Shown piece after piece: positions 716-38,047 of a stretch of 64,000 nt of DNA (positions are counted from its first letter, which is position 1; every line of letters starts with the position of its first letter). A program made the position numbers and the translations under genes. Below the pieces are notes generated by a model, which made no database searches, was not told the origin of the DNA, and worked only from the letters and a program-made list of their open reading frames with translations. The DNA comes from Synechococcus sp. (GTDB taxonomy: Bacteria > Cyanobacteriota > Cyanobacteriia > PCC-6307 > Cyanobiaceae): assembly GCA_047285805.1 (NCBI GenBank), contig JBJBCN010000002.1, positions 1,184,001-1,248,000 on the forward strand, written 5' to 3'.

Positions 716-1300
716 TTAGCGCTCGTCCGGTCCGTGGAAGGCGGCACTGAACACCAAGAGGTCAATCCCGCTGAAGAGAAAGCTGATCCCCACCAGGATT
801 CCGAGCACGCTCAACAGACCCAGTCCCTTCATCGAAACGATGATCAAGCCGAGGATGAAGGTGACGATGCCATTGGCTAAACCCCAGCCCCAGCCGGCCA
901 TCTCGGTGTGGGACAGGGAGACGATGCTGGCCACCACACCCTCCACCAGAAAGACGATGCCGATGGCGAAGGCAAAGGCAGCCACCTGAGCAGCTGCCGG
1001 TTCCACGCCGGCGCTGAACTGCTGGATGATCCAAGCGCCGGTCACTACAAACAAGGTAGAGACCACGAGCCGCCAGAAGCAGTGCCATTTGCTCAGCTGC
1101 CTGGAGCGGTTGAGGCTGTTCACCCAGCCGATGATCCCGCCCACCAGGAAAGCCAGGGCCACAACCACCGTCACCCATGCGGAGGCAATCATCGGGAAAA
1201 TAAGGGCGAGAACGCCCAGCACCAACAACAAGATGCCTTCGGCAACGGTGAAGCTGCGCAGGGCGCCCACCGCCAAACCGGAATTGCCGTCTGAGGCCAT
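716..1300 (-). CDS. HdeD/DUF308-family membrane protein
   Basis: Six hydrophobic segments, repeated EGILLLVLGVLAL / GWGLANGIVTFILG pattern. Confidence 0.8.
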   Translation of the reverse strand: MASDGNSGLAVGALRSFTVAEGILLLVLGVLALIFPMIASAWVTVVVALAFLVGGIIGWVNSLNRSRQLSKWHCFWRLVVSTLFVVTGAWIIQQFSAGVEPAAAQVAAFAFAIGIVFLVEGVVASIVSLSHTEMAGWGWGLANGIVTFILGLIIVSMKGLGLLSVLGILVGISFLFSGIDLLVFSAAFHGPDER

Positions 1301-7036: not shown

Positions 7037-9753
7037 CAGCTATCCGCCGCCTTGATGATCCTCACAGCGCTAGCCCGCAGACGACCGGTCTTGGTGATGG
7101 CCGGAGCCTTCTTCGCCGCTGGCTTCTTGGCTGCTGGCTTCTTCGCCGCCGTAGATTTGGCCGCGGTCTTGCGGCCCTTGCCCTTGCCTGAGGCGGCCTT
7201 GGCGGCGAGCAGTTCGACCGCCTGGTCAAGGGTGATGGTGTCCGCCGTGGTGCCTTCGGGGAGCGAGGCATTCACCTTGCCCTGCTTCACATACAGGCCA
7301 TAGGGGCCATCGAAGAGCTGGATCGTTTCATCGGCCCCCTCGGGGGTCCCGAGATCCTTCAGGGCCGTACGGCCCCCTCGGCCGCGCTTGGGCATCGCCA
7401 GGAGTTCGAGGGCACGGGAGAGGCCCACCATCAGCACGTCGTCTTCGGCCTTGAGGGAGCGGTAGTCCTTTTCCCCCTTGCCCTTGTGGTGGACCACATA
7501 GGGTCCAAAGCGACCCAGACCGGCCTCCACCTTCCCGCCATCGGGGTGTTCGCCGAGGTGTCTGGGGAGACGCAACAAGCCCAGGGCGTCCTCGAGGCTG
7601 AGGTCCTCGGGCTTAGTGCCCTTGGGGAGAGAGGCACGCTTGGGCTTGGGGTTGTCGTCGCTGACCTGGCCCCGCTGCACATAGGGCCCGTATTGGCCGA
7701 AGAGCAGATAGACCAAATCACCGGTCTCGGGATCTTCCCCAAGAGCCTCAGGACCGTCGGCCTTCTGCTTCAGGATCAGCTCCGCTTTTTCGGAGTCCAG
7801 ATCCGCAGGGGTGATCTCGTTGGGAAGGGTGGCCTTCAGCAGCTCCTCGCTGCCGTCCTCCGCCACCCGCTTGGTTTCCAGATAGGCCCCAAAACGACCG
7901 ATCCGCACTACGCAGGGGAGCCCCTCGAGGGCAATCGTGCGTGAGGCGGTGGGGTCGATATCCCCTTCCCTCTGCTGCACTTGGGTCTCGAGCCCCTTGT
8001 CGCCCTTGTAGAAGCTCTCGAGGTAGGGCAGCCACTGCACCTTGCCGGTGGAGATTTCGTCGAGGGTCCCCTCCATCCGCGCGGTGAAGCTGGTATCAAC
8101 CAAGTCCGGGAAATGCTCCTCCAGCAGGGCAGTCACCGCAAACGCCGTGAAGCTTGGAGTCAGCGAGTTGTTCTGCAGCGTCGCGTAACCCCGATCGACG
8201 ATGGTCCCGATGATCGAGGCGTAGGTGGAGGGGCGACCGATGCCTTCCTTCTCGAGCATCTTGACCAGGGCAGCCTCGCTGTAGCGAGCGGGTGGCTGGG
8301 TTTGGTGACCCAACGCTTCCACGGCCTTGCAACTGGGGCTATCGCCGGTTTTCAGGTTCGGCAGAAGGACTTCCTGCCCTTCGAGCGCGGCATCTGGGTC
8401 ATCACTGCCCTCGACGTAGGCCCGGAAGAAACCGGGGAAGTCAATGCGCTTGCCATTGGCACGGAAGCTGGCGGGCCCGAGGCTGCCGCCATCGACGTCC
8501 AGCTCAACGCTGAGCATGGTCAGGCGTGCCTCGGCCATCTGGGAGGCCACGGTGCGCTTCCAGATCAGCTCGTAGAGGGCAAGATCTCGGCCATCGAGGC
8601 CGGTGGCCGAGGGATCCCTGAAGCTTTCACCCGCGGGGCGAATCGCCTCATGGGCCTCCTGGGCATTGCGGGACTTAGTGGAGAACTGACGGGGTGAGCC
8701 GCTCAGATACTCCTTGCCGTATTTCTCAGCCACACAGTTGCGGGCTGCGTTGATGGCTTGGTCACTGAGGTGCACCGAGTCAGTGCGCATGTAGGTGATG
8801 AAGCCCCGCTCGTAGAGCCCCTGGGCCGTGCGCATGGTCTCGCGCGCCGACAGGCGAAGCTTGCGGTTGGCCTCCTGCTGCAGGGTGCTGGTGGTGAACG
8901 GCGCTACCGGTTTACGGGTGGTGGGCTTTTCCTCGACAGAGGACACCCGCCAAGGAGCCACGAGGACCGCTTCGCGGAGGCTGCGGGCGTCGGCCTCGCT
9001 CAGCAAGCGGACTTTGCTACCGGCCTTCAGCCCACCGGTGTTCTCGTCGAAATCCGAACCACCGGCAATGCGCTCGCCCTTGAGGTGGGTGAGTTTGGCG
9101 TCAAAGCCGCTGCTCCCCTGGGCCATCTCAGCCTTGAGATCCCAGTAGCTGCCGCTCTTGAACGCCCGACGAGCCCGCTCCCGTTGCACCAGCAAGCGGA
9201 CGGCCACGGACTGAACCCGGCCGGCGCTCAAGCCCCAGGCCACCTTTTTCCAAAGCAGGGGCGAGAGGGTGTAGCCCACCAGGCGATCGAGGATGCGCCG
9301 CGTTTCCTGGGCATGGACGAGCTCCATGTCGAGCTCGCGGGTCTGATCGAGGGCTCGGCCGATGGCCTCCTTGGTGATCTCGTGGAACACCATCCGCTTG
9401 ACCGGCACCTTCGGGTTCAGGAGCTGCAGCAGGTGCCAGCTGATGGACTCCCCTTCCCGGTCTTCGTCGGTCGCGAGCAGGAGTTGATCGGCGCCTTTGA
9501 GGGCGTCCTTCAGTTCTTTGACCGTCTTCTTTTTGTCCTTCGGAACCACGTAGAGCGGTTCGAAGTCCTTGGTGGTGTTCACGCCGAGGTTCGCCCACTT
9601 CTCGCCCTTGTGGGCAGCCGGGATCTCGCTGGCGTTGTTGGGCAGGTCGCGCACGTGCCCCATCGAGGCCTCAACCTTGAAGTCCTTCGGCAAGAACCCG
9701 CGGATGGTGCGGGCCTTGGTGGGGCTTTCAACGATGACGAGGGTGTGCGCCAC
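7036..9753 (-). CDS. topA: DNA topoisomerase I
   Basis: [34 protein letters not shown], Lys-rich tail; GTG at 9753 is the likely start. Confidence 0.98.
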
Positions 9754-28993: not shown

Positions 28994-29042
28994 ATGTTTC
29001 GCGACATCTGCCCAGCCCTTACCAAGGAGCCTCTTTCAACTA
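28994..29042 (+). repeat. attL: stranded native-looking 5' end of the aminotransferase gene (MFRDICPAL...)
   Basis: ATGTTTCGCGACATCTGCCCAGCCCTT...TTCAACTA; shares TGCCCAGC and TTCAACTA with 36899-36933; AAGGA upstream. Confidence 0.8.
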
Positions 29043-29762
29043 GAAACACAAGCCCCAAGAAGCCAGTTTTTGCAATAGGTTAAAAACCGAAGAGGCACCG
29101 GCCGTACAACACTTCTACCAACGCGATAGCAGGTGACCGCTGAGGAGATTGTTGAGAAAAGCCCTAGGAGCAGCAGCGGCAGAAGCAACGAATCACGAGA
29201 GAGCATCCAACAGAAGGGCGCCACTGGGGCTTCTGAAGTCGCTGGGGGGCACTAGAAGGGGCTTCTGAATTCTTCCCGAAACTACGAGCATCACTCAGCT
29301 GGGTCTATCGGGGCATGAGTAGCTGAAGAACTTGAATGAGGCCCGCACTTGAACTAGGCCCGCGGTCCTCAGCTCTATTTGAAAACGATCAAGCGGTCAA
29401 AAAAGCACATCACCGCTGAAGCCGCTGCCAGATCATTTGTTCACGACCTCCGGGTCGAGCAAGGGGTGGGGGTGGGGGAATCGCTAAAACCCTTCTTGTC
29501 TGCTTGGTCGGCTACTTGACTGAATCAGTTGGAGCTGTTGCCATTTCTGCTGCTGCTGGCCGAGGCGAGATCACGTCTCGACTTACTAGAAGTCGCCTAA
29601 AGACAACTAAACGCTCAAGCCATCAGTAGCGACATTTTCAACCAAATACCAATGCAAAATCAAACCGATCTTTGCATTATAAATCACATCATTCGTTCCG
29701 CGAGCGATGCTTCAAATATGTCACAGTGATGCGTGGCGAGCAAAGGAAGCTTCATGCTTTGC

Positions 29763-30539
29763 CTAAGCCTTAATTCGTCGAGTGGGAGGTTTGAGAATCG
29801 GAAGAGAACGCTTCTTGAAGATCAGATCAAAGTAAACACCGGCATTGGCAGTATTTCCCTCCACTATCATTGTGTAACCAGCTTTCTCAAAAAAGCGACT
29901 AATCTCTTGGCATGGCTGTCGCGATACCGTTATGGACCTATTCTTTGTATCAACACGATTTGGCGGAGACACAATCACTGGCGGCAGAAGTTCGTAGCCA
30001 TAATTAGTTAATAGAGAAAAAACCTCCGTAACTGTTGGAGACCAGTGATAAGCGCTAAAGTCCGGACAGGAAACTCTTATGAAGTCAAAGTTGTCGAGAA
30101 TATCCACGCTCTCACTAAGGATTAAATACTCAGATCCGCAGGTGTCGAGCACTAAATAGTTATATTTCTGCAGGTCAACCTGATTTTTGTCTGCAAAATC
30201 ACGTAGCGTCAATGCGTCAACTTCAATCATTTCACCTTGCTGTGCATCTGCAAAAACATTGGTTATCTGGTCAAAGCCAAACTTGGATGAATATCGTGGG
30301 TTATCAGTTGACGGAAAAAAACAATCCTTTTGGGTTTTGTCTGAAATGAATGCGTGATGAAATCTATGGATTGCCACATCCGCAGACAAATTCCTCAAGT
30401 TATCTACAGATTGACGATTGGCATCAATCCAAATGCATGGAACATCAATAGAGGAGTACAAATTCCTTTCCGGGGCATCACCTGCACCAATATGAATGGC
30501 GCCATTCACTCCAACTGGCACAAAATCAGCGTACATCAA
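29763..30539 (-). CDS. FkbM-like SAM-dependent methyltransferase
   Basis: GAIHIGAG..E, WIDAN, YNYLVLDTCGSEYLIL. Confidence 0.7.
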   Translation of the reverse strand: MMYADFVPVGVNGAIHIGAGDAPERNLYSSIDVPCIWIDANRQSVDNLRNLSADVAIHRFHHAFISDKTQKDCFFPSTDNPRYSSKFGFDQITNVFADAQQGEMIEVDALTLRDFADKNQVDLQKYNYLVLDTCGSEYLILSESVDILDNFDFIRVSCPDFSAYHWSPTVTEVFSLLTNYGYELLPPVIVSPPNRVDTKNRSITVSRQPCQEISRFFEKAGYTMIVEGNTANAGVYFDLIFKKRSLPILKPPTRRIKA

Positions 30540-30662
30540 AAAACATGTTTTTATAGATTATCACTGCTTGCCATTGGGTTGTCAAGGCCCTTAAGAGGAG
30601 CCTTATGTAGGCAGATTGATTAGCCATTCAGCTCAAGATGCTGAACCTCAAGAACCTTTCCC

Positions 30663-31295
30663 TTAATTTAATGAATGTGTTGTGAAGCACCACTGCAGAA
30701 AGCTTTGAATAATGCTGACCTGTGAAAGATCAATACAGTGTCCACCCTTGAATCGCGAAAGAAGGGCCACATTCTTTCTTGAACGAAAGCGTGCGAAAAG
30801 CTCCATCCCTTTGTGAAATGGAACTACCGTGTCATTAAGTCCGTGAATAAACAATGTGGGTGGCATCTTCTGCGGAATCTCGACTTCGTCAAGAGGATAT
30901 CCACTACATATACATAATCCAGCTAGCGGTAGATCTATTGCAGCCTTGCAAGCTATTGCTGCGCCCTGCGAAAAACCCAGTAGCACTGTTTTCTCAAGAG
31001 CTATCTCGACACTCATTCGTCGGAGGTCTTCTTTCAACAAATTGCAGTCATATTGATTGGAATCACCTCCGACTTCATACCATTGATACCCTTTTCCATT
31101 GGGACTTTTGCTTGGTGCCCGAAGAGACAAGACGTTGAATTTGATATTTAGGTGAGACAAGCAAAATCTATAGAGATCGTTTTCATCAGTACCTGAACCA
31201 TGGAGTAGCACAAGGCGCTTGCCTGAATCATGGTTCTTACTCAATCTACAGACATGCTTTAGTGTTGATCCAGAAGAATCAAATGTCATCCCCAT
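30663..31295 (-). CDS. Phospholipase/carboxylesterase (alpha/beta hydrolase)
   Basis: LLHGSG, GFSQGA, HGLNDTVVP, GGH catalytic-triad motifs. Confidence 0.88.
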   Translation of the reverse strand: MGMTFDSSGSTLKHVCRLSKNHDSGKRLVLLHGSGTDENDLYRFCLSHLNIKFNVLSLRAPSKSPNGKGYQWYEVGGDSNQYDCNLLKEDLRRMSVEIALEKTVLLGFSQGAAIACKAAIDLPLAGLCICSGYPLDEVEIPQKMPPTLFIHGLNDTVVPFHKGMELFARFRSRKNVALLSRFKGGHCIDLSQVSIIQSFLQWCFTTHSLN

Positions 31296-31386
31296 TTTGC
31301 CAACCCATTAGAATTAAAGCAATTCTCAGCTCAAACATCAATCCTCGGGCGCTCGACGGTGAAATAACTATAGATTCTAACTTAAA

Positions 31387-31707
31387 CTAAAAGAAATACC
31401 TTCGCCATGATTCCCAGGCAGATACTCGCAACCTAGTGTCGGAACCGCGGGGGCCCCTGCGTAGCTTTTTGGTATCTCGCTCATATTCCTTTTCTTTTTT
31501 CTTGATAGAAAGTATTCTGGCAGACTGCTCTAGATTGCGGTATCTTATTTGTTCAGCACTTAATTGTGTCTGAGCTTTTTGATCTGTCGATAAATGTATC
31601 TTTTTGGATTCTGGCTTTGCTGTCCATCGTCGCATTAGGCGACTGACATTGCGAGCCAAGACATAAGCGAGTACAACGCCAAGGGTAAGAGAGAGCAAAG
31701 ATATCAT
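31387..31707 (-). CDS. Hypothetical protein with N-terminal TM anchor
   Basis: 106-aa ORF, hydrophobic N-terminus, basic C-terminus. Confidence 0.55.
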   Translation of the reverse strand: MISLLSLTLGVVLAYVLARNVSRLMRRWTAKPESKKIHLSTDQKAQTQLSAEQIRYRNLEQSARILSIKKKEKEYERDTKKLRRGPRGSDTRLRVSAWESWRRYFF

Positions 31708-31976
31708 TCGCCTTAAGGTGTATTGCTACAATTCTACCTGCCCAGTCTGGTTTGTGAGGTCATGCATGCATGTTGCCAGGTGGCTGTGTTCTCTAGCGGA
31801 CTATTCGAAGCCTGAGAGGGGGCCAAGAGACATCTAGTTTCCTTATGGCTCTATGAGGTGGCTTTGGTAATTTGCGGCGGGAAGTTGTGGCGTATGTGGC
31901 TGGAGACCCAGTTGTGCGATGCAAGGCCTTGAGCTGGGTTCGCGAAGATCGATCCAATTGGACGTTGCTGATCCCC

Positions 31977-32450
31977 ATGGCGAGGTTCGTCATCCTTATG
32001 GTCTTGGCCCTAGTGGGCTGCTCCGGTCAGGCCAACGCACTAGCCAGCGTGGTGATTGCCTCCTGCTACGAAGGCGACAAATGCAGCACGACCGAAGGGG
32101 AGAGCGTTGGGCTGGCCTGTATCGAAACCCCGAAGCTGAGTGGCCGCAATGCTGGTCTCTTGCCGGCCAAGGCTGCTGGCGACTATCTCCACAGCAGGGT
32201 GGTCGGAAAGGAGTTCTTGATTCGCCGTGTCAACACTGACCGCTATGGCAGGACTGTGGACGATCTCTACCTGAAGCCCTTTGAGTCGGTTGGGCTAGGT
32301 CTGGTACGCAGTGGCCATGCGGTCATTTATCGGCGCTTCGCCAAGCAGGGTCCTTGGGTCAACGAACTTGTAGTCGACGTAGTCCCACAGCAGCATGATC
32401 TGACCAACGATGGCGTGCAGCCTGAGCAAGAGGACGCTCACTCTAACTAA
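31977..32450 (+). CDS. Thermonuclease (SNase)-family protein, catalytically degenerate
   Basis: SCYEGDKC..VGLACIETPKL..DRYGRTV..LVRSGHA. Confidence 0.7.
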   Translation: MARFVILMVLALVGCSGQANALASVVIASCYEGDKCSTTEGESVGLACIETPKLSGRNAGLLPAKAAGDYLHSRVVGKEFLIRRVNTDRYGRTVDDLYLKPFESVGLGLVRSGHAVIYRRFAKQGPWVNELVVDVVPQQHDLTNDGVQPEQEDAHSN

Positions 32451-32848
32451 TTAGAATCAAGCGAGAACTAGAAGCCGCTGCCGCTATTTTGTCAAGAATA
32501 CCACGCAAGATTCTAATTGCAGTCATTTTGTGTGCTTGCAACTATAGAGTATGCGCCTAATTATTTTGACCAGACATATAGAATCCGCATCTTTAGAAAA
32601 TGTGGCAAGCTACGGATAACGGGTTACACGCAAAGGTGGGTTCAATCCTGGATGCAGAATTGATACCGAAAGCACAAAGAAACATAGATTTTACCTCGAA
32701 ACAATCGAACTCGTCATAAAAGAAGTACAGCGAAATCACCATTGCAAAAATGAATCAGCGATTGGCGGTTAAACACCCTAAAACCGATATTGCTATGAAC
32801 TGAGCTGCGCTAGGAGGTGAGTGATTGGAACGATCTTATATTGAACTC

Positions 32849-32875
32849 TAAAAAAGCCGCCCACTTGGGCGGCTT
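32849..32875 (-). terminator. Intrinsic terminator of the OMP gene
   Basis: AAGCCGCCCA-CT-TGGGCGGCTT hairpin next to an A-run (U-tract on minus strand). Confidence 0.8.
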
Positions 32876-32899
32876 GGCGAACATCTCCTACACCTCTAA

Positions 32900-33664
32900 T
32901 CAGAGGCGAATACGAACCCCTGCACGAGCGCCGTAGGAATACAATGGGGAATAATTAAGCCCATTAATGGAGAACGCTGTAGAACCATTGTAAGTAGCCT
33001 CGACAAATACCTCAGCTTTCTCAGTTGCTGCATATGCAACACCAGCCTTAGCGAGGTAGCCGAATGCTCCAGCATTGCCACCATCTACTTTGACACTTTG
33101 AGAAAATGTGCCAGTTGCTCCTGAGGTCAACGAGGCACTACCGGACTGCGTAGGGACGGATACATTTGTGTAGCCTATTCCTCCACCCACATAGGGAGTA
33201 AACTTGGTCTTGGTTCCAATGTCATAATAAGCACTCGCAAACACACTATTTGTACTGAGAGTTCCGGTACCGGTAATAGTGAAGCCGTACGGAACATCGG
33301 TGTATGTATTGCCAAGGTTGGTGCCACTCTCATGACCGCTACCGGTGATTTCACCGATCATTGGGCCATTAAAAAGATAGGTCAGCTCAGCTCGAATATC
33401 TCCGAAGTCGTACCCAAAACCAGCTTCGCCAGCAAAGCCCACCCCAAGATCAAGTTGAGGGGTAAGGAAACCGGAATAGGTATCTCCGTTGTCGAATACT
33501 CCCGAGTAGGACTTTTCATTATTACCGGTATTATTGGTCCATGAAGCACCAGCTCCTAGCGTCGCGTAGAAACCTTTAGTTCCTTTGGGAGACTCTTGAG
33601 CGAGCACCGGAGAGCTGAGAGCGAAAAGCGTAGCTGCTGCGGCAATCTTTAGAAGGCCCTTCAT
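32900..33664 (-). CDS. Outer-membrane beta-barrel protein (OMP_b-brl/opacity-like)
   Basis: Signal peptide, GFYATLGAG, GYDFGDIRAELTY, FTPYVGGGIG, C-terminal GVRIRL. Confidence 0.85.
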   Translation of the reverse strand: MKGLLKIAAAATLFALSSPVLAQESPKGTKGFYATLGAGASWTNNTGNNEKSYSGVFDNGDTYSGFLTPQLDLGVGFAGEAGFGYDFGDIRAELTYLFNGPMIGEITGSGHESGTNLGNTYTDVPYGFTITGTGTLSTNSVFASAYYDIGTKTKFTPYVGGGIGYTNVSVPTQSGSASLTSGATGTFSQSVKVDGGNAGAFGYLAKAGVAYAATEKAEVFVEATYNGSTAFSINGLNYSPLYSYGARAGVRIRL

Positions 33665-34065
33665 TTGACCAGAGGTTCAATAGGCCTTATTTAAGCACAA
33701 GCGTACCGAATGCAAACCCGTCATATGGCAATATTTCGTCTGACCCAGCTAGCGCAAATCAGCATTTATAATTAATTAAGTGCATTTGAAGCGCAGGCCT
33801 CTGCAACCCTTCAAGTGATATGCGCCTATCAACATTAAAACTCATAGCATTTCGTCCGGCGCTTGGTATGGCTTTTTTGAAGATGCACTACACGCTTATA
33901 GTCTGAGCTTACACGGTTGCTTGGATTGCGTTTCAGGTTTTTCCCGAATTACTACTTGCTGCAGGTGCCATTGAGCTTGATGCATTTTGGAGTTGAAAGG
34001 ATAGTTGGAACCATATCAATCCAACGAAATAATAACCTTCGGAGCCTCAGCTCCCATTGGTTAGT

Positions 34066-34913
34066 TCATGCCTTCTGAGATGTTGTAAGTGTTAGCTCAA
34101 GCTCTAGCTGCTCATACCGAATGATGAGAGTGACTGGTGCACACTTCCACTGGTCTACAAGCTCTGCCATATGGTCAAGCCTGAGTTCGAAGCTACTCAG
34201 CAAATCCATTGATGCCGGATCGTCCTGGATGCTTGCCCAGTCAGTAGCTTGAGCCGTCTTGACCAACTGGCTGACCAGATCCTTGGTTTGATCCTCCTCG
34301 AAGACACTCCCGTTCAACTTGGTTTTACAAGATCGGTTTCCTGAGTTCTCGGCTGGATATTTTGCTTGCAGCTTCTCAAGCTCTCGGACAATTAGCGACT
34401 TCCCTTCAGACAACTCATAACTATTGCTTGCTTCAGTGTGTCCTTCCCAGTTCATCCGAGCGACCTGATAAAGAGCTGACACTTGATAGGACTGCAAGTA
34501 TTTGAATTCATCCTCTTTCCTTACCTCAAATCCCTCTTCCGATTCAAGCCCGTCATTCATTTCGCAACTGATTCTTTTTAATTCACTTTCTAGAAACTCC
34601 CCGGAAGTACTCAGCTTTGAAACTTTAGAGGGCTTAAGACCTATTTCCTGGAGATACACACGCAGTCGCTTCAAGAAGGTCCGGAGTTACCACTTCTCCA
34701 TGCCGACTTGGAAGAAGCTTTTGACCAGAGTCAGCCCTGCTTTTTGTAGCATGATTCTGCATCGTTTGTGTACTGGTAAAGATTATATAGATCTTTGATG
34801 CACTCTTCTCCTGCCCTGCTGACGATCTCGTTAGCAAGATCAGTGAAACGGTGATCATTGCTACCGTCCTCTTGAGTTAGATTGATAGTTGTAGATAGAT
34901 TCATTTTTTCCAC
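34066..34913 (-). pseudogene. Broken hypothetical element gene (ORFs 34731-34913 and 34066-34674 probably one gene)
   Basis: The 202-aa frame continues upstream across one TAA (34687-89) as MLQKAGLTLVKSFFQVGMEKW and overlaps the end of the 60-aa ORF at an A-run. Confidence 0.55.
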
Positions 34914-35304
34914 GTGGATACTTTTTGGTTGCCACCTGCGGGCAACTCATCCTGGCAAATGTCATGGCGCCAAGCTTGAATTAACTAACTGTCTAGTTAG
35001 TTCACCTATATTCGGTTTGGGAAGTGTTGGCGTCGGCTCCGGCCGTAGCACTCACTCCGCAAACACGACTTGCATCGAATGATGGACTTCACCTGAGTTC
35101 ATGGTGCCACCGGTATGTTACTCGCGTCGGGCTAAGGGGGTTGAATAACGGGTACTACTGCACAGTGCCTGAAGCTGTGCTCTACCTGGCATCCAACAAC
35201 GCGAACAACGAACTACTCCAACCTGTTGTGGTTGGCATTTGGAGTTGCCCCTTTCTTTAGAGATGAATCCACTTGTCTAGTTTTACCGCCTTGAAACTGG
35301 CTTG

Positions 35305-35650
35305 ACGCGTTCTTCTCTGTATACGGGGGGTCTTCTTTTCCCTGTATACATGTGCTATAAAATTGTCTGTATAAGGGTACTAATGCTCTTTCTGCTTACA
35401 CATGACGGACTTGTCTTCTTGAATGATTCTGAGATTGGTTTCTTCTGTATACGGGTGCTATCGCTCTCTGTTTTATCGGTGACGAACCTGTCCCCCTCCT
35501 ATACATCCGCCATCACTTCTCCCCGTATAAGCCCGTTATCAATGGTCTCCCTCCCTGTATGAGGGGCGGATCAGTTTTCCCCTATACAACCTTTAGCAGT
35601 CTTCTCGTCTACACCCGTTATTGCCTTTGTCTGTATACACCCGACATCAC
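35305..35650. repeat. Degenerate 25-26-bp periodic array, ~13 units, pyrimidine tract + GTATAC core
   Basis: Core starts at 35319, 35344, 35369, 35394, (35421), 35447, (35473), 35499, 35525, 35557, 35582, 35607, 35633. Confidence 0.8.
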
Positions 35651-35679
35651 CATTCCAAAACAAGTAAGCAAGAAACTCA

Positions 35680-36849
35680 CTACAGAGATCTAACGGCCTC
35701 TACCAACCGCTGCCAAGGAACAGATCCATAGCTTCCAGTAACATTCGATGGCTCGTGGCCAAGCAATTTCCCGATTATTACCTCGTTGAAGCTATACTCT
35801 CTGAATTATGTCGCAGCATGATGCCGCAGCCCATGTGGATTAACACCCTGTAAAGGATTTACAGGGTTTAGACAAGTTATCCCCCAACGTCCATCAGGTC
35901 CTTGTAGACGCGGCTAGACAAAGCCCGTAGAGGATCGAAGCGGGGTGAGTATCTCTTCAAGCTCAGGATGCAGTGGTATTTCTCGATGAGAAGCACTTCT
36001 CTTAAGCAAACGCTCTGGATTAGGACGCACAACAATCCGATCCTCAAGCAAATCCTCGACCCTCAAGCCAGCAATTTCTGATAAGCGAGCCCCTGTGTAA
36101 CAAAGAAGCTTGAGGACTGGGACATAAATGCTTCCGGTCCAGTCTGTGACTGGTTTGACAACATCAAGACGATCTTTCTTGACGACCTTAAGGCGCTTGG
36201 CCAAGCCCCTAAAAATATGCGTTGAATTAGGCTTAACTTCTTCAAGAATCGACCAAAGGACACTCAAATAATTGATTGTGGTCTTGGCTGTATTCGCACT
36301 CACCCGTTCAAGCAAGTAAGTCCGGTAGAAGGCAGCGTGATCTTTGGTGCATAACAGCGGTGAACCAACACCGCAAAATCCCATGAACAGATCTAGCTGC
36401 TTGCACCAGCTATTCCGCGTCCGCCTTGCTGGCTGCTTGAGCTTGGTCGCAACAGCAATCAGATCCTCCGCCGTGTAGACGGGCTCAGGAATCAGCTCAT
36501 GGGTGACGACAGCGACCATCCGCTCTCGTTGGGCCTGACTCAACTGCGGATCAACCCGCGCCCCTTCCAGCAGAAGCTCCTGCACCTCAGGATCGTCGAG
36601 AGCCGCGGTGCAGGGAAGCCAATCGATCTGCTCATCAGGGCTCAGCAGCAACTCCCCACGGGCAATCGCGATCTCTCGATCAGTACTCGCCAGAAAGCCT
36701 GGAAGCCTCGCTCTGGCTTCGTTGAGGGTCTTGCCACCACCTTCCTTCCAAGTGGCCTTACAGACGATCTGACGCACGTCAGATAGCACCGCTCGTTGAA
36801 GGACGTAAGACTGGCGTGCCTTGTAGATGTGGCTGGGAATTTTGGGCAC
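35680..36849 (-). pseudogene. Tyrosine recombinase/integrase with two premature stops
   Basis: YTGARLSEI and HREIPLHP; same frame past TAG 35914-16 gives HGLRH, and past TAA 35806-08 gives LLGH...Y, ending TAG 35680. Confidence 0.9.
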
Positions 36850-38047
36850 CGCTACCAACGCTTCTACCAACGCAAACGCAAGTAGCCTTAGGGATCTTTG
36901 CCCAGCACTAGCCAACAAGACCTACTTCAACTACGGCGGTCAAGGTCCCCTGCCGACACCGTCGCTGGAGGCGATCAACCAGAGCTGGAGAACCATTCAG
37001 AAGCTCGGGCCGTTCACAACCGATGTCTGGCCCTTCATCGAGCAGGAAACAAGCCGCCTGCGCAGAGCCCTTGCGTGCTGGTGCGGGGTTGGCCCCCATC
37101 GAATGACCCTGACGGAGAACGTCACTAGCGGCTGCGTCCTCCCCCTCTGGGGCTTGCCCTGGGAGGCCGGTGATGAGCTCCTCATTAGCGACTGCGAGCA
37201 CCCCGGTGTCGTGGCCGCCTGCCAGGAATTAGCTCGCCGCCACCAGTTGAGCCTGGCCACCCTGCCTGTGCTCGCGCTCTGCCAGACCACGCCGCAGGCA
37301 GAACTGGAGTCCGCTGTGCTGCAGCAGCTCGAGGATTACCAAACCCCGCGGACCCGGCTCGTGGTCCTCTCCCACCTGCTCTGGAACACGGGGGCGGTGA
37401 TGCCGATCCCGGCTATCGCCCATCAGCTCAAGCATCACCCCAAACAACCCTGGCTGCTGGTGGATGCGGCCCAATCCTTGGGCAGCCTTCCCGTCGCCCA
37501 AGCGGCGCAGGCATCCGACATCTACGCCTTCACCGGCCACAAGTGGTGCTGCGGCCCCGAGGGCCTCGGCGGCGTGGCCCTCTCGGAGCGGGTCATCGAC
37601 CAAGGCCAACCGACCCTGATTGGCTGGCGCAGCCTCGAGCAAGAGAGCAGCACCAGCAGCAGCTGGCACCCCGACGGTCGGCGCTTTGAAGTCGCCACCT
37701 CCTGTGTGCCCCTCCTCAGCGGCCTACGTCAATCGCTGGAGCTCTTGGCCGCAGAAGGAAATGACGACGATCGCCTCGAAAGGATTCGTCAGGGCAGTCA
37801 GCAGCTCTGGTATGGGTTGCAATCACTGCCGGGCTGCAGCACCCTGCTGCCGGAAGCTCCGCCCGCCGGATTGATCAGCTTCAAGCTGCAGGGCATTGAG
37901 ACCGCCCAAGCCGTGACGGCCCTCGGTCAAGCAGGGATCTGGATCCGCCGCCTCGATTCCCCGGATTGCCTCCGGGCCTGCACCCACATCTGCACCACCC
38001 CCACTGAAATCGAGGGGTTAATCGGGGCGCTGGCCAAGGTCAGCTAG
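36827..38047 (+). CDS. Class-V PLP aminotransferase (cysteine/cystine lyase-like)
   Basis: [36 protein letters not shown]; start codon ambiguous because of element insertion. Confidence 0.88.
36884..36933 (+). repeat. attR: element-supplied recoded 5' end (SLRDLCPAL...)
   Basis: Homologous to 28994-29042 but with AGC at the ATG position. Confidence 0.8.

Follow-up and report, generated by a model that had tools for sequence, protein, structure and literature searches.

The window analysed here, a stretch of 64,000 nucleotides from a Synechococcus sp. genome, carries a low-GC island of 7.9 kb (29043-36926) inserted in a class V aminotransferase gene. Between its two junctions, the island contains cargo genes, an orphan gene, a conserved non-coding block, a repeat array and, with the array directly 3' of it, a tyrosine integrase gene (Table 1). 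This copy of the element is decaying, with both the integrase and the orphan gene broken, and its array and block are still well preserved; it is probably immobile on its own. Logan contigs from two sequencing runs displayed zero differences from the window.

Table 1. Features of the island and of the promoter-like array (window coordinates). Variant refers to the four bases at -10..-7 of each unit, and +1 to the predicted transcription start.
Feature	Position	Strand	Remarks
Left junction: displaced original aminotransferase 5' end closing in a stop	28994..29043	+	core TTCAACTA at 29035
Low-GC cargo: FkbM methyltransferase, esterase, hypothetical ORF, SNase-like gene, outer-membrane beta-barrel protein	29763..33664		
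Broken gene of an orphan ~280-aa helical protein family, weakly ParB-HTH/DUF3102-like	34066..34904	-	stop at 34733-34731 and frame change
Short palindrome just before the gene start, possible operator	34906..34920		better preserved in relatives
Conserved ~330-nt non-coding block with covariation-supported secondary structure, predicted RNA from the array	34984..35311	-	no Rfam match; second copy at C2:1280759-1281090
Tandem array of T7-like cyanophage RNA-polymerase promoter-like units	35310..35650	-	13 slots: 8 strong, 1 intermediate, 3 weak, 1 without motif
Last unit, variant CCCC, abuts the structured block	35310..35336	-	predicted +1 at 35320
Unit, variant GCAC	35335..35361	-	predicted +1 at 35345
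Unit, variant GCAC; 9 consecutive bases in common with the Syn5 promoter; top genome-wide match of the phage-only matrix	35438..35464	-	predicted +1 at 35448
Unit, variant GCGG	35490..35516	-	predicted +1 at 35500
Strongest unit, variant ACGG (as in S-CBP4)	35516..35542	-	predicted +1 at 35526
Unit, variant CGCC	35548..35574	-	predicted +1 at 35558
Unit, variant ACGG (as in S-CBP4), degenerate core	35598..35624	-	predicted +1 at 35608
Strong unit, variant TCGG	35624..35650	-	predicted +1 at 35634; 1 mismatch in 15 nt to a phage site
Tyrosine integrase pseudogene	35680..36849	-	in-frame stops at 35914-35916 and 35806-35808; open ORF in close relative G023
Two CTACCAACGC direct repeats	36852..36873	+	starts 36852 and 36864, third copy at 29115; likely integrase arm-type sites (putative function)
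Right junction: element-supplied aminotransferase 5' end	36878..36933	+	core TTCAACTA at 36926

The aminotransferase 5' end is supplied by the element, and no ATG is present at the original start position (36827-36933). Therefore, integration may alter the start or the expression of this gene. In metagenome contigs, the start of the empty site appears as a loose end. No tRNA gene was found near the insertion site. The aminotransferase gene lies upstream in 33 of 36 related-integrase loci, and L146, L164 and L166 (the last two near-identical) display attP-type junctions. L146, whose junction is at 7439-7489, starts inside a member of the orphan family (E 8e-41). This layout could be that of a circle or concatemer, or that of a tandem insertion, and the same holds for L164 and L166. 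All three are metagenome contigs in which the junctions are found without genes of the host. A tblastn search with the integrase against the phage collection gave no match, and its relatives in IMG/VR were distant only (22-39%). A Pfam scan of the 15 window ORFs revealed no polymerase, primase, terminase or capsid gene.

The orphan gene belongs to a family of 121 homologues, for which no convincing match was obtained in Pfam, PHROG or PADLOC (8 members submitted to PADLOC). Its protein was modelled with a pLDDT of 75 and a pTM of 0.56. When this predicted structure was compared to the PDB with Foldseek, nothing reached E<=0.001, and ParB DNA-binding domains were weak matches ranked 2, 5 and 19; VIA-align returned generic helical hairpins only (Z<=7.4). 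No nuclease or other enzymatic fold was found for this protein. The palindrome preceding the gene, which resembles two inverted DnaA-box-like sites, is also present in L011, L166, L168 and L394. In L161, L508, L509 and L516, a second orphan gene (~135 aa, of winged-helix-like appearance and without Pfam match) was observed directly behind the arrays.

Units of the array and cyanophage promoters

A periodic repeat downstream of the integrase had been noticed in the first-pass annotation. It was confirmed at 35310-35650, with spacings nearly as listed at that time; the motif is read on the minus strand, pointing to lower coordinates, on the same strand as the integrase. The refined hexamer starts (plus-strand coordinates) are 35319, 35344, 35369, 35396, 35421, 35447, 35473, 35499, 35525, 35557, 35582, 35607 and 35633, corresponding to start-to-start spacings of 25, 25, 27, 25, 26, 26, 26, 26, 32, 25, 25 and 26. 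Eight units are strong (matrix score >=17), the unit at 35582 is intermediate (11.3), those at 35369, 35396 and 35421 are weak, and the slot at 35473 is empty; the initial count of two weak units was thus too low. The array had been described as non-coding and distinct from CRISPR, and this was upheld, with no repeat-spacer alternation and no Rfam match. A guide-RNA array was rejected on the same grounds. Sigma-70 promoters or terminators did not exceed chance.

The autocorrelation expected for such an array was recovered against 1000 dinucleotide shuffles, with z values of 3.6, 3.0 and 3.4 at lags 25, 26 and 78, but 29 of the 1000 shuffles equalled the array after best-lag correction. By itself, the periodicity is of modest significance. 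Clustering of the motif is much stronger: nowhere in the 2.37-Mb genome are there at least 3 pattern matches per 400 bp except in the window array, which has 8. Eight sites of the whole genome, both strands considered, score >=17 and all fall inside the array, the matrix itself having been built with these units.

This matrix was iterated over the arrays of the window, of G023 and of ten other loci, leading to 89 distinct units, none of them taken from a phage. Their consensus on the minus strand consists of AT, a variable GC-rich block, Y-K-T-A-T-A-S and a purine tract. The promoter of the Syn5 RNA polymerase (RNAP) has been experimentally defined as a 15-bp element present twice per genome (PMC3950665). 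In the Syn5 record, its copies are located at about +810 inside the RNAP gene and directly after terL. The array matrix ranked these two positions first and second, out of about 90,000 on both strands, in S-CBP1, S-CBP4, S-RIP1 and P-SSP7 (4 of 9 cyanopodovirus genomes). In S-SRP01, the RNAP-internal site alone was ranked first. The promoters of Syn5, P60, S-CBP42 and S-CBP2 were missed by the matrix (ranks 13-706); therefore, the experimental anchor is position together with a 9-base match, and not score.

The Syn5 promoter and the predicted Syn5-like promoters (18 sites in nine genomes; PMC11880802) are positional homologues of the array units, in the same register. The unit at 35447 shares nine consecutive bases with the Syn5 promoter, both being followed by a purine-rich start. 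The two types differ in their core, which is of GTAAGC type at the paired sites of Syn5, P60 and S-CBP42, whereas the window units display the GTATAC-type core of S-CBP1/S-CBP4/S-RIP1/P-SSP7-like phages. They also differ in arrangement: the Syn5 promoter is found twice per phage genome, whereas the window units are stacked in the host chromosome.

The match to phage sites was also analyzed in IMG/VR. When terL loci were scanned entirely and on both strands, the best site fell within -25..+60 of the terL end, in non-coding sequence, in 59 of 80 cases. RNAP-internal sites located by a protein motif all scored >=11 (123/123; 37 of 160 loci could not be located), a test that is partly forced by this protein motif. 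The terL test is independent of this motif and concerns non-coding DNA. Moreover, 13 of the 68 distinct 9-nt variable blocks of the arrays are found exactly in phages, compared to 1.2 after column shuffling, a value matched by none of 2000 shuffles. In the reverse test, a matrix made from 72 phage sites only gave the unit at 35447 as its top match in the host genome, and as its second match the single site preceding the other copy of the structured block; four array units were among its top 15, and 10 of these matches, elsewhere in the genome, were background. A blastn comparison of the block and array to phages gave chance matches only. Altogether, these results make it very probable that the units are T7-like cyanophage promoters, with at least six recognition variants.

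Covariation between the promoters and the polymerases of the phages was assayed by APC-corrected mutual information, with 200 variable residues and 10 promoter columns in 47 distinct RNAPs (54 of 80 loci usable). Five pairs stood out, -9/665, -9/657, -10/659, -8/667 and -7/667, with z of 10.1, 8.4, 8.3, 6.7 and 6.6 respectively (next pair, 3.7). Residues 657, 659, 665 and 667 align to R746, N748, R756 and Q758 of T7, which are promoter-reading residues according to PMC11880802. APC removes the kinship of related phages only in part, and the landing of the signal on the specificity-loop hairpin was not imposed by the method. Thus, the variable block at -10..-7 is the polymerase specificity code in the phage copies for which it was computed, and by sequence match it would play the same role in the array.

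The eight strong window units carry six variants of this code (TCGG, ACGG, CGCC, GCGG, GCAC and CCCC). All six were found among 127 phage sites comprising 36 variants, GCAC via Syn5 only. Any single polymerase matches just one or two window units. Considering all arrays, 19 of 35 variants occur in phages, compared to 12.1 for shuffles (18/5000). In the arrays of L095 and L513, no variant present in the phage set analyzed was found.

Arrays and structured block in related elements

We collected 72 related-integrase loci, of which 57 have at least 600 nt downstream; several are near-duplicates and some were used to train the matrix. Same-strand downstream sites were detected in 21 of these 57 loci, with three or more in 12 and one or two in 9, and opposite-strand sites in none (0/57). 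The single orientation of the units noted in the window is thus kept in 21 of 21 related loci with sites, and the arrays sought beside homologous integrases do exist. The combination of integrase, array and adjacent gene, first proposed as the core of a picocyanobacterial mobile-element family, indeed recurs in relatives. Among 401 family genomes, the tandem pattern was found in 26, compared to 7 for a reversed control; five of the 26 hold a different, inverted-repeat-like match only, and a sixth holds one of each. This conserved 40-nt inverted-repeat-like sequence was matched in one genus (G177, G201, G280, G311, G356, G413) and is not a promoter array by matrix where checked (L522).

Three or more sites (3 to 18 units) were found in 13 of the 16 loci fetched. 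At least five arrays, associated with three or more integrase families, are no more than 300 nt away from the integrase 3' end, as counted without the gene lists of L512-L515, and some others are 2-3 kb from the integrase. The longest array (L507, G091:C1:647124-647600) displays 18 units with 9 variants, 2.4 kb downstream of the integrase. In relatives, adjacent units are 24 to 112 bp apart, most often 26-28 bp, and distances of 24-34 bp are common; this fits close packing of ~25-bp sites rather than a fixed helical phase. The idea that spacing is better conserved than sequence did not hold, as spacing is not kept in relatives and a single central block is the place of systematic differences among the units.

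The structured block between array and gene had been absent from the first-pass annotation. Its identity is ~85-88% in G023 and 68-76% in more distant relatives, and it was found in 8 of 401 genomes, a count which includes its own genome and one short weak match. Its alignment contains 1- and 2-nt indels, which argues against a protein-coding block. RNAalifold analysis of 12 sequences on the promoter strand revealed compensatory changes in 22 of 67 pairs, compared to 19 of 62 for 10 sequences on the other strand; strand support for the structure is modest. Double changes affect 21 of 63 named pairs, a number reached by none of 500 shuffles, with the reservation that the structure was derived from the same alignment and that the sequences are kin. 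Folded alone, the window block is not unusually stable (z -1.5). Rfam 15 gave no match at E<=1 in the window between 27000 and 35700, the single listed match being at 37882 and far below the gathering score. Three elements without a strong unit retain the block and, at an unchanged distance from it, a single weak promoter-like site. The 5' half of the block also has divergent, incomplete counterparts in L100 and L143-L146 (E 1e-10 to 1e-12), and the RNA family therefore extends beyond the 12 sequences aligned.

Three hairpins of the block (alignment columns 34-76 and 311-321) often have GGA in their loops, as in CsrA/Rsm-binding RNAs, but not in all sequences. The exact block motif gave no match in IMG/VR, and the block profile displayed no detectable homology to post-terL regions when compared to 9 phage genomes and 80 terL loci (best E 0.04). 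A GAATC..GTGA motif is common to the end of the block and to phage post-terL regions, where it is present in 11 of 59 only. A second decayed element was observed in the same genome (C2:1280759-1281200; L012:8760-10843). Its integrase is broken and belongs to another family, and it carries a single promoter-like site (CCTT) and a copy of the block with 71% identity.

The module formed by array, block and gene is thus found beside a second integrase family in its own genome, and occurs with no obvious adjacent integrase in L392/L393. The genes behind arrays differ among elements. In L184 (E 1e-12), L150, L509, L136/L137, L508 and L172, homology to the phage post-terL region replaces the block, as it does by blastn in L175. 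These elements carry what is recognisable by sequence as the cyanopodovirus post-terminase hairpin region, and would be the best candidates for true satellites. No mimic of a genome end or terminal repeat was found in the window element.

Possible function of the array

The array is likely to be a broad-range infection switch. The RNAP of an infecting T7-like cyanophage would fire the one or two units that it matches, and would transcribe the predicted ~330-nt RNA, the orphan gene and beyond. The island would be silent cargo in uninfected cells, and the trigger would start its own excision, replication and spread at the expense of the phage. We infer transcription by a phage polymerase, the existence of the RNA, and replication or packaging. 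For the whole reading, in which a phage-triggered island exploits the phage in the manner of a satellite or a T7 island, we estimate a probability of about 0.5. A satellite role is favoured because relatives copy the post-terminase region, attP-type junctions exist, plasmids with the T7 origin, pac site and terminal repeat are replicated and packaged by this phage (PMC13236587), and T7 RNAP recruits terminase (PMC3276506). Points against this role are that neither a terminal-repeat mimic nor a replication or packaging gene was found in the window element, and that its block displays no detectable homology to phage post-terL regions. Packaging is unsupported in IMG/VR, since the tandem pattern gave 66 matches there and none held an array of three or more sites.

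A more elaborate version of the satellite reading can be put forward tentatively. In Synechococcus, Cyanobium and their relatives, the elements may form an undescribed and widespread class of minimal satellites of lytic T7-like cyanophages, devoid of replication and packaging genes. Their array would be an evolving 'keyring' of promoters which gains, duplicates and diversifies units and so tracks local phage specificities; it would fire a structured RNA or a captured phage origin, thereby recruiting the replication and packaging machinery of the phage. If this were true, arrays would form a readable record of the T7-like phages met by a lineage.

Alternatively, the array could sense the phage RNAP for defence, with the RNA, the helical protein or transcription itself blocking the phage or killing the cell, and the integrase merely moving the cassette as ordinary island cargo. 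An array of multiple specificities suits a sensor, and the module is portable, being associated with a second integrase family and, in L392/L393, with no obvious integrase; the arrays lying 2-3 kb from the integrase and the lack of a packaging signal in the window element also fit. However, PADLOC recognised none of the 8 downstream-family members, the protein has no nuclease or enzymatic fold, and downstream genes vary while several elements keep a copy of the phage post-terL region, which would be superfluous for a pure toxin switch. We consider defence less probable than a satellite role. Satellites usually also inhibit their helper, so the satellite and defence readings overlap.

A neutral relic, made of phage-derived promoters amplified by slippage and without present function, would account for the broken integrase and downstream gene and for the four degenerate slots of the window. 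It is improbable for the family, in which the single orientation in 21 of 21 loci with sites, the recurrence behind several integrase families, the match of diversified blocks to natural phage variants and the compensatory changes in the structured block indicate selection; this one copy may nevertheless be a relic. It is less probable still that the units act as a decoy sponge, binding and titrating the phage RNAP with only incidental transcription. Up to 17-18 units stacked at near-minimal spacing would suit such a role, but any one polymerase would find only one or two matching units in the window, all units are directed into the conserved structured block, and the three elements mentioned above keep this block behind one weak promoter-like site only.

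The protein-binding platform proposed in the first-pass annotation remains as a prediction, but its ligand would most likely be the polymerase of an infecting phage instead of a binder encoded by the element. An iteron origin, a partition site or a helically phased nucleoprotein scaffold with such a binder is very improbable, even if the neighbouring protein is weakly ParB-HTH/DUF3102-like and its gene is preceded by the DnaA-box-like palindrome. The variable spacing in relatives (24 to 112 bp) speaks against it, as do units varying exactly where a phage RNAP reads, arrays followed by unrelated downstream genes, and the occurrence of the motif at fixed positions in phages devoid of such a gene. 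An iteron origin was rejected in view of the six variants among eight units, this same spacing, and the absence of a Rep family match.

Comparison with known systems

The closest known kind of element is the T7 island of enterobacteria. T7 islands are said to bear an integrase and att ends and no polymerase gene; the window island has an integrase (broken) and att-type ends, and no polymerase gene was found in it. Their hosts are reportedly enterobacterial, with insertion at a tRNA gene (tRNA-Gly). Promoters from several phages are also said to be combined in the islands of 2006, and mixed specificity as such may thus have a precedent. In both cases, tandem T7-like promoters occur on a chromosomal island with an integrase and without its own RNA polymerase (Chen & Schneider 2006, NAR 34:1133). 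The window island would work like a T7 island, but its membership is putative, as host, target site and phage group differ. The present family has picocyanobacterial hosts, cyanopodovirus promoters, the aminotransferase 5' end as target, up to 18 units, the ~330-nt block and the orphan gene. Loop covariation, multi-variant arrays, the structured block and the family survey are contributed by the present analysis.

The right-end promoter/origin of T7 is named phiOR. In the T7 right-end promoter/origin/pac region and in phagemids (PMC13236587 and PMC3276506), a promoter directly follows terL, and several relatives copy the cyanophage equivalent behind their array; in contrast, the window block displays no homology to this cyanophage region and no terminal repeat was found. 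VEIMEs (PMC9618062) and tycheposons (bioRxiv 10.1101/2020.12.28.424599) are likewise small integrase-bearing elements of marine picocyanobacteria which may depend on phages. Unlike VEIMEs or PICIs, the window element has no detected primase, terminase, capsid or terS gene, and packaging is only predicted for its family. The words promoter, T7-like and podovir- are absent from the main text of the tycheposon preprint (10.1101/2020.12.28.424599). In the literature searched, we found neither such cyanobacterial arrays nor an element wired to the RNAP of T7-like cyanophages; subscription papers and the supplement of PMC11880802 may hold clade-B promoters.

In oceans and lakes, T7-like cyanopodoviruses are a major cause of death of picocyanobacteria. 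If phage-triggered, the islands would be either parasites by which cargo genes are moved in the course of lytic infection, or a sensor for broad-range defence, and they provide a second, independent setting for asking what T7 islands do. The block may represent a new structured RNA. For the RNAPs of S-CBP/P-SSP7-type phages, we further obtained candidate promoters and a recognition code of four residues, which could be useful for orthogonal expression tools. The candidate RNAP promoters, at RNAP +808..811 and post-terL, are found in S-CBP1, S-CBP4, S-RIP1, S-SRP01 and P-SSP7 (records L216, L220, L221, L222 and L223).
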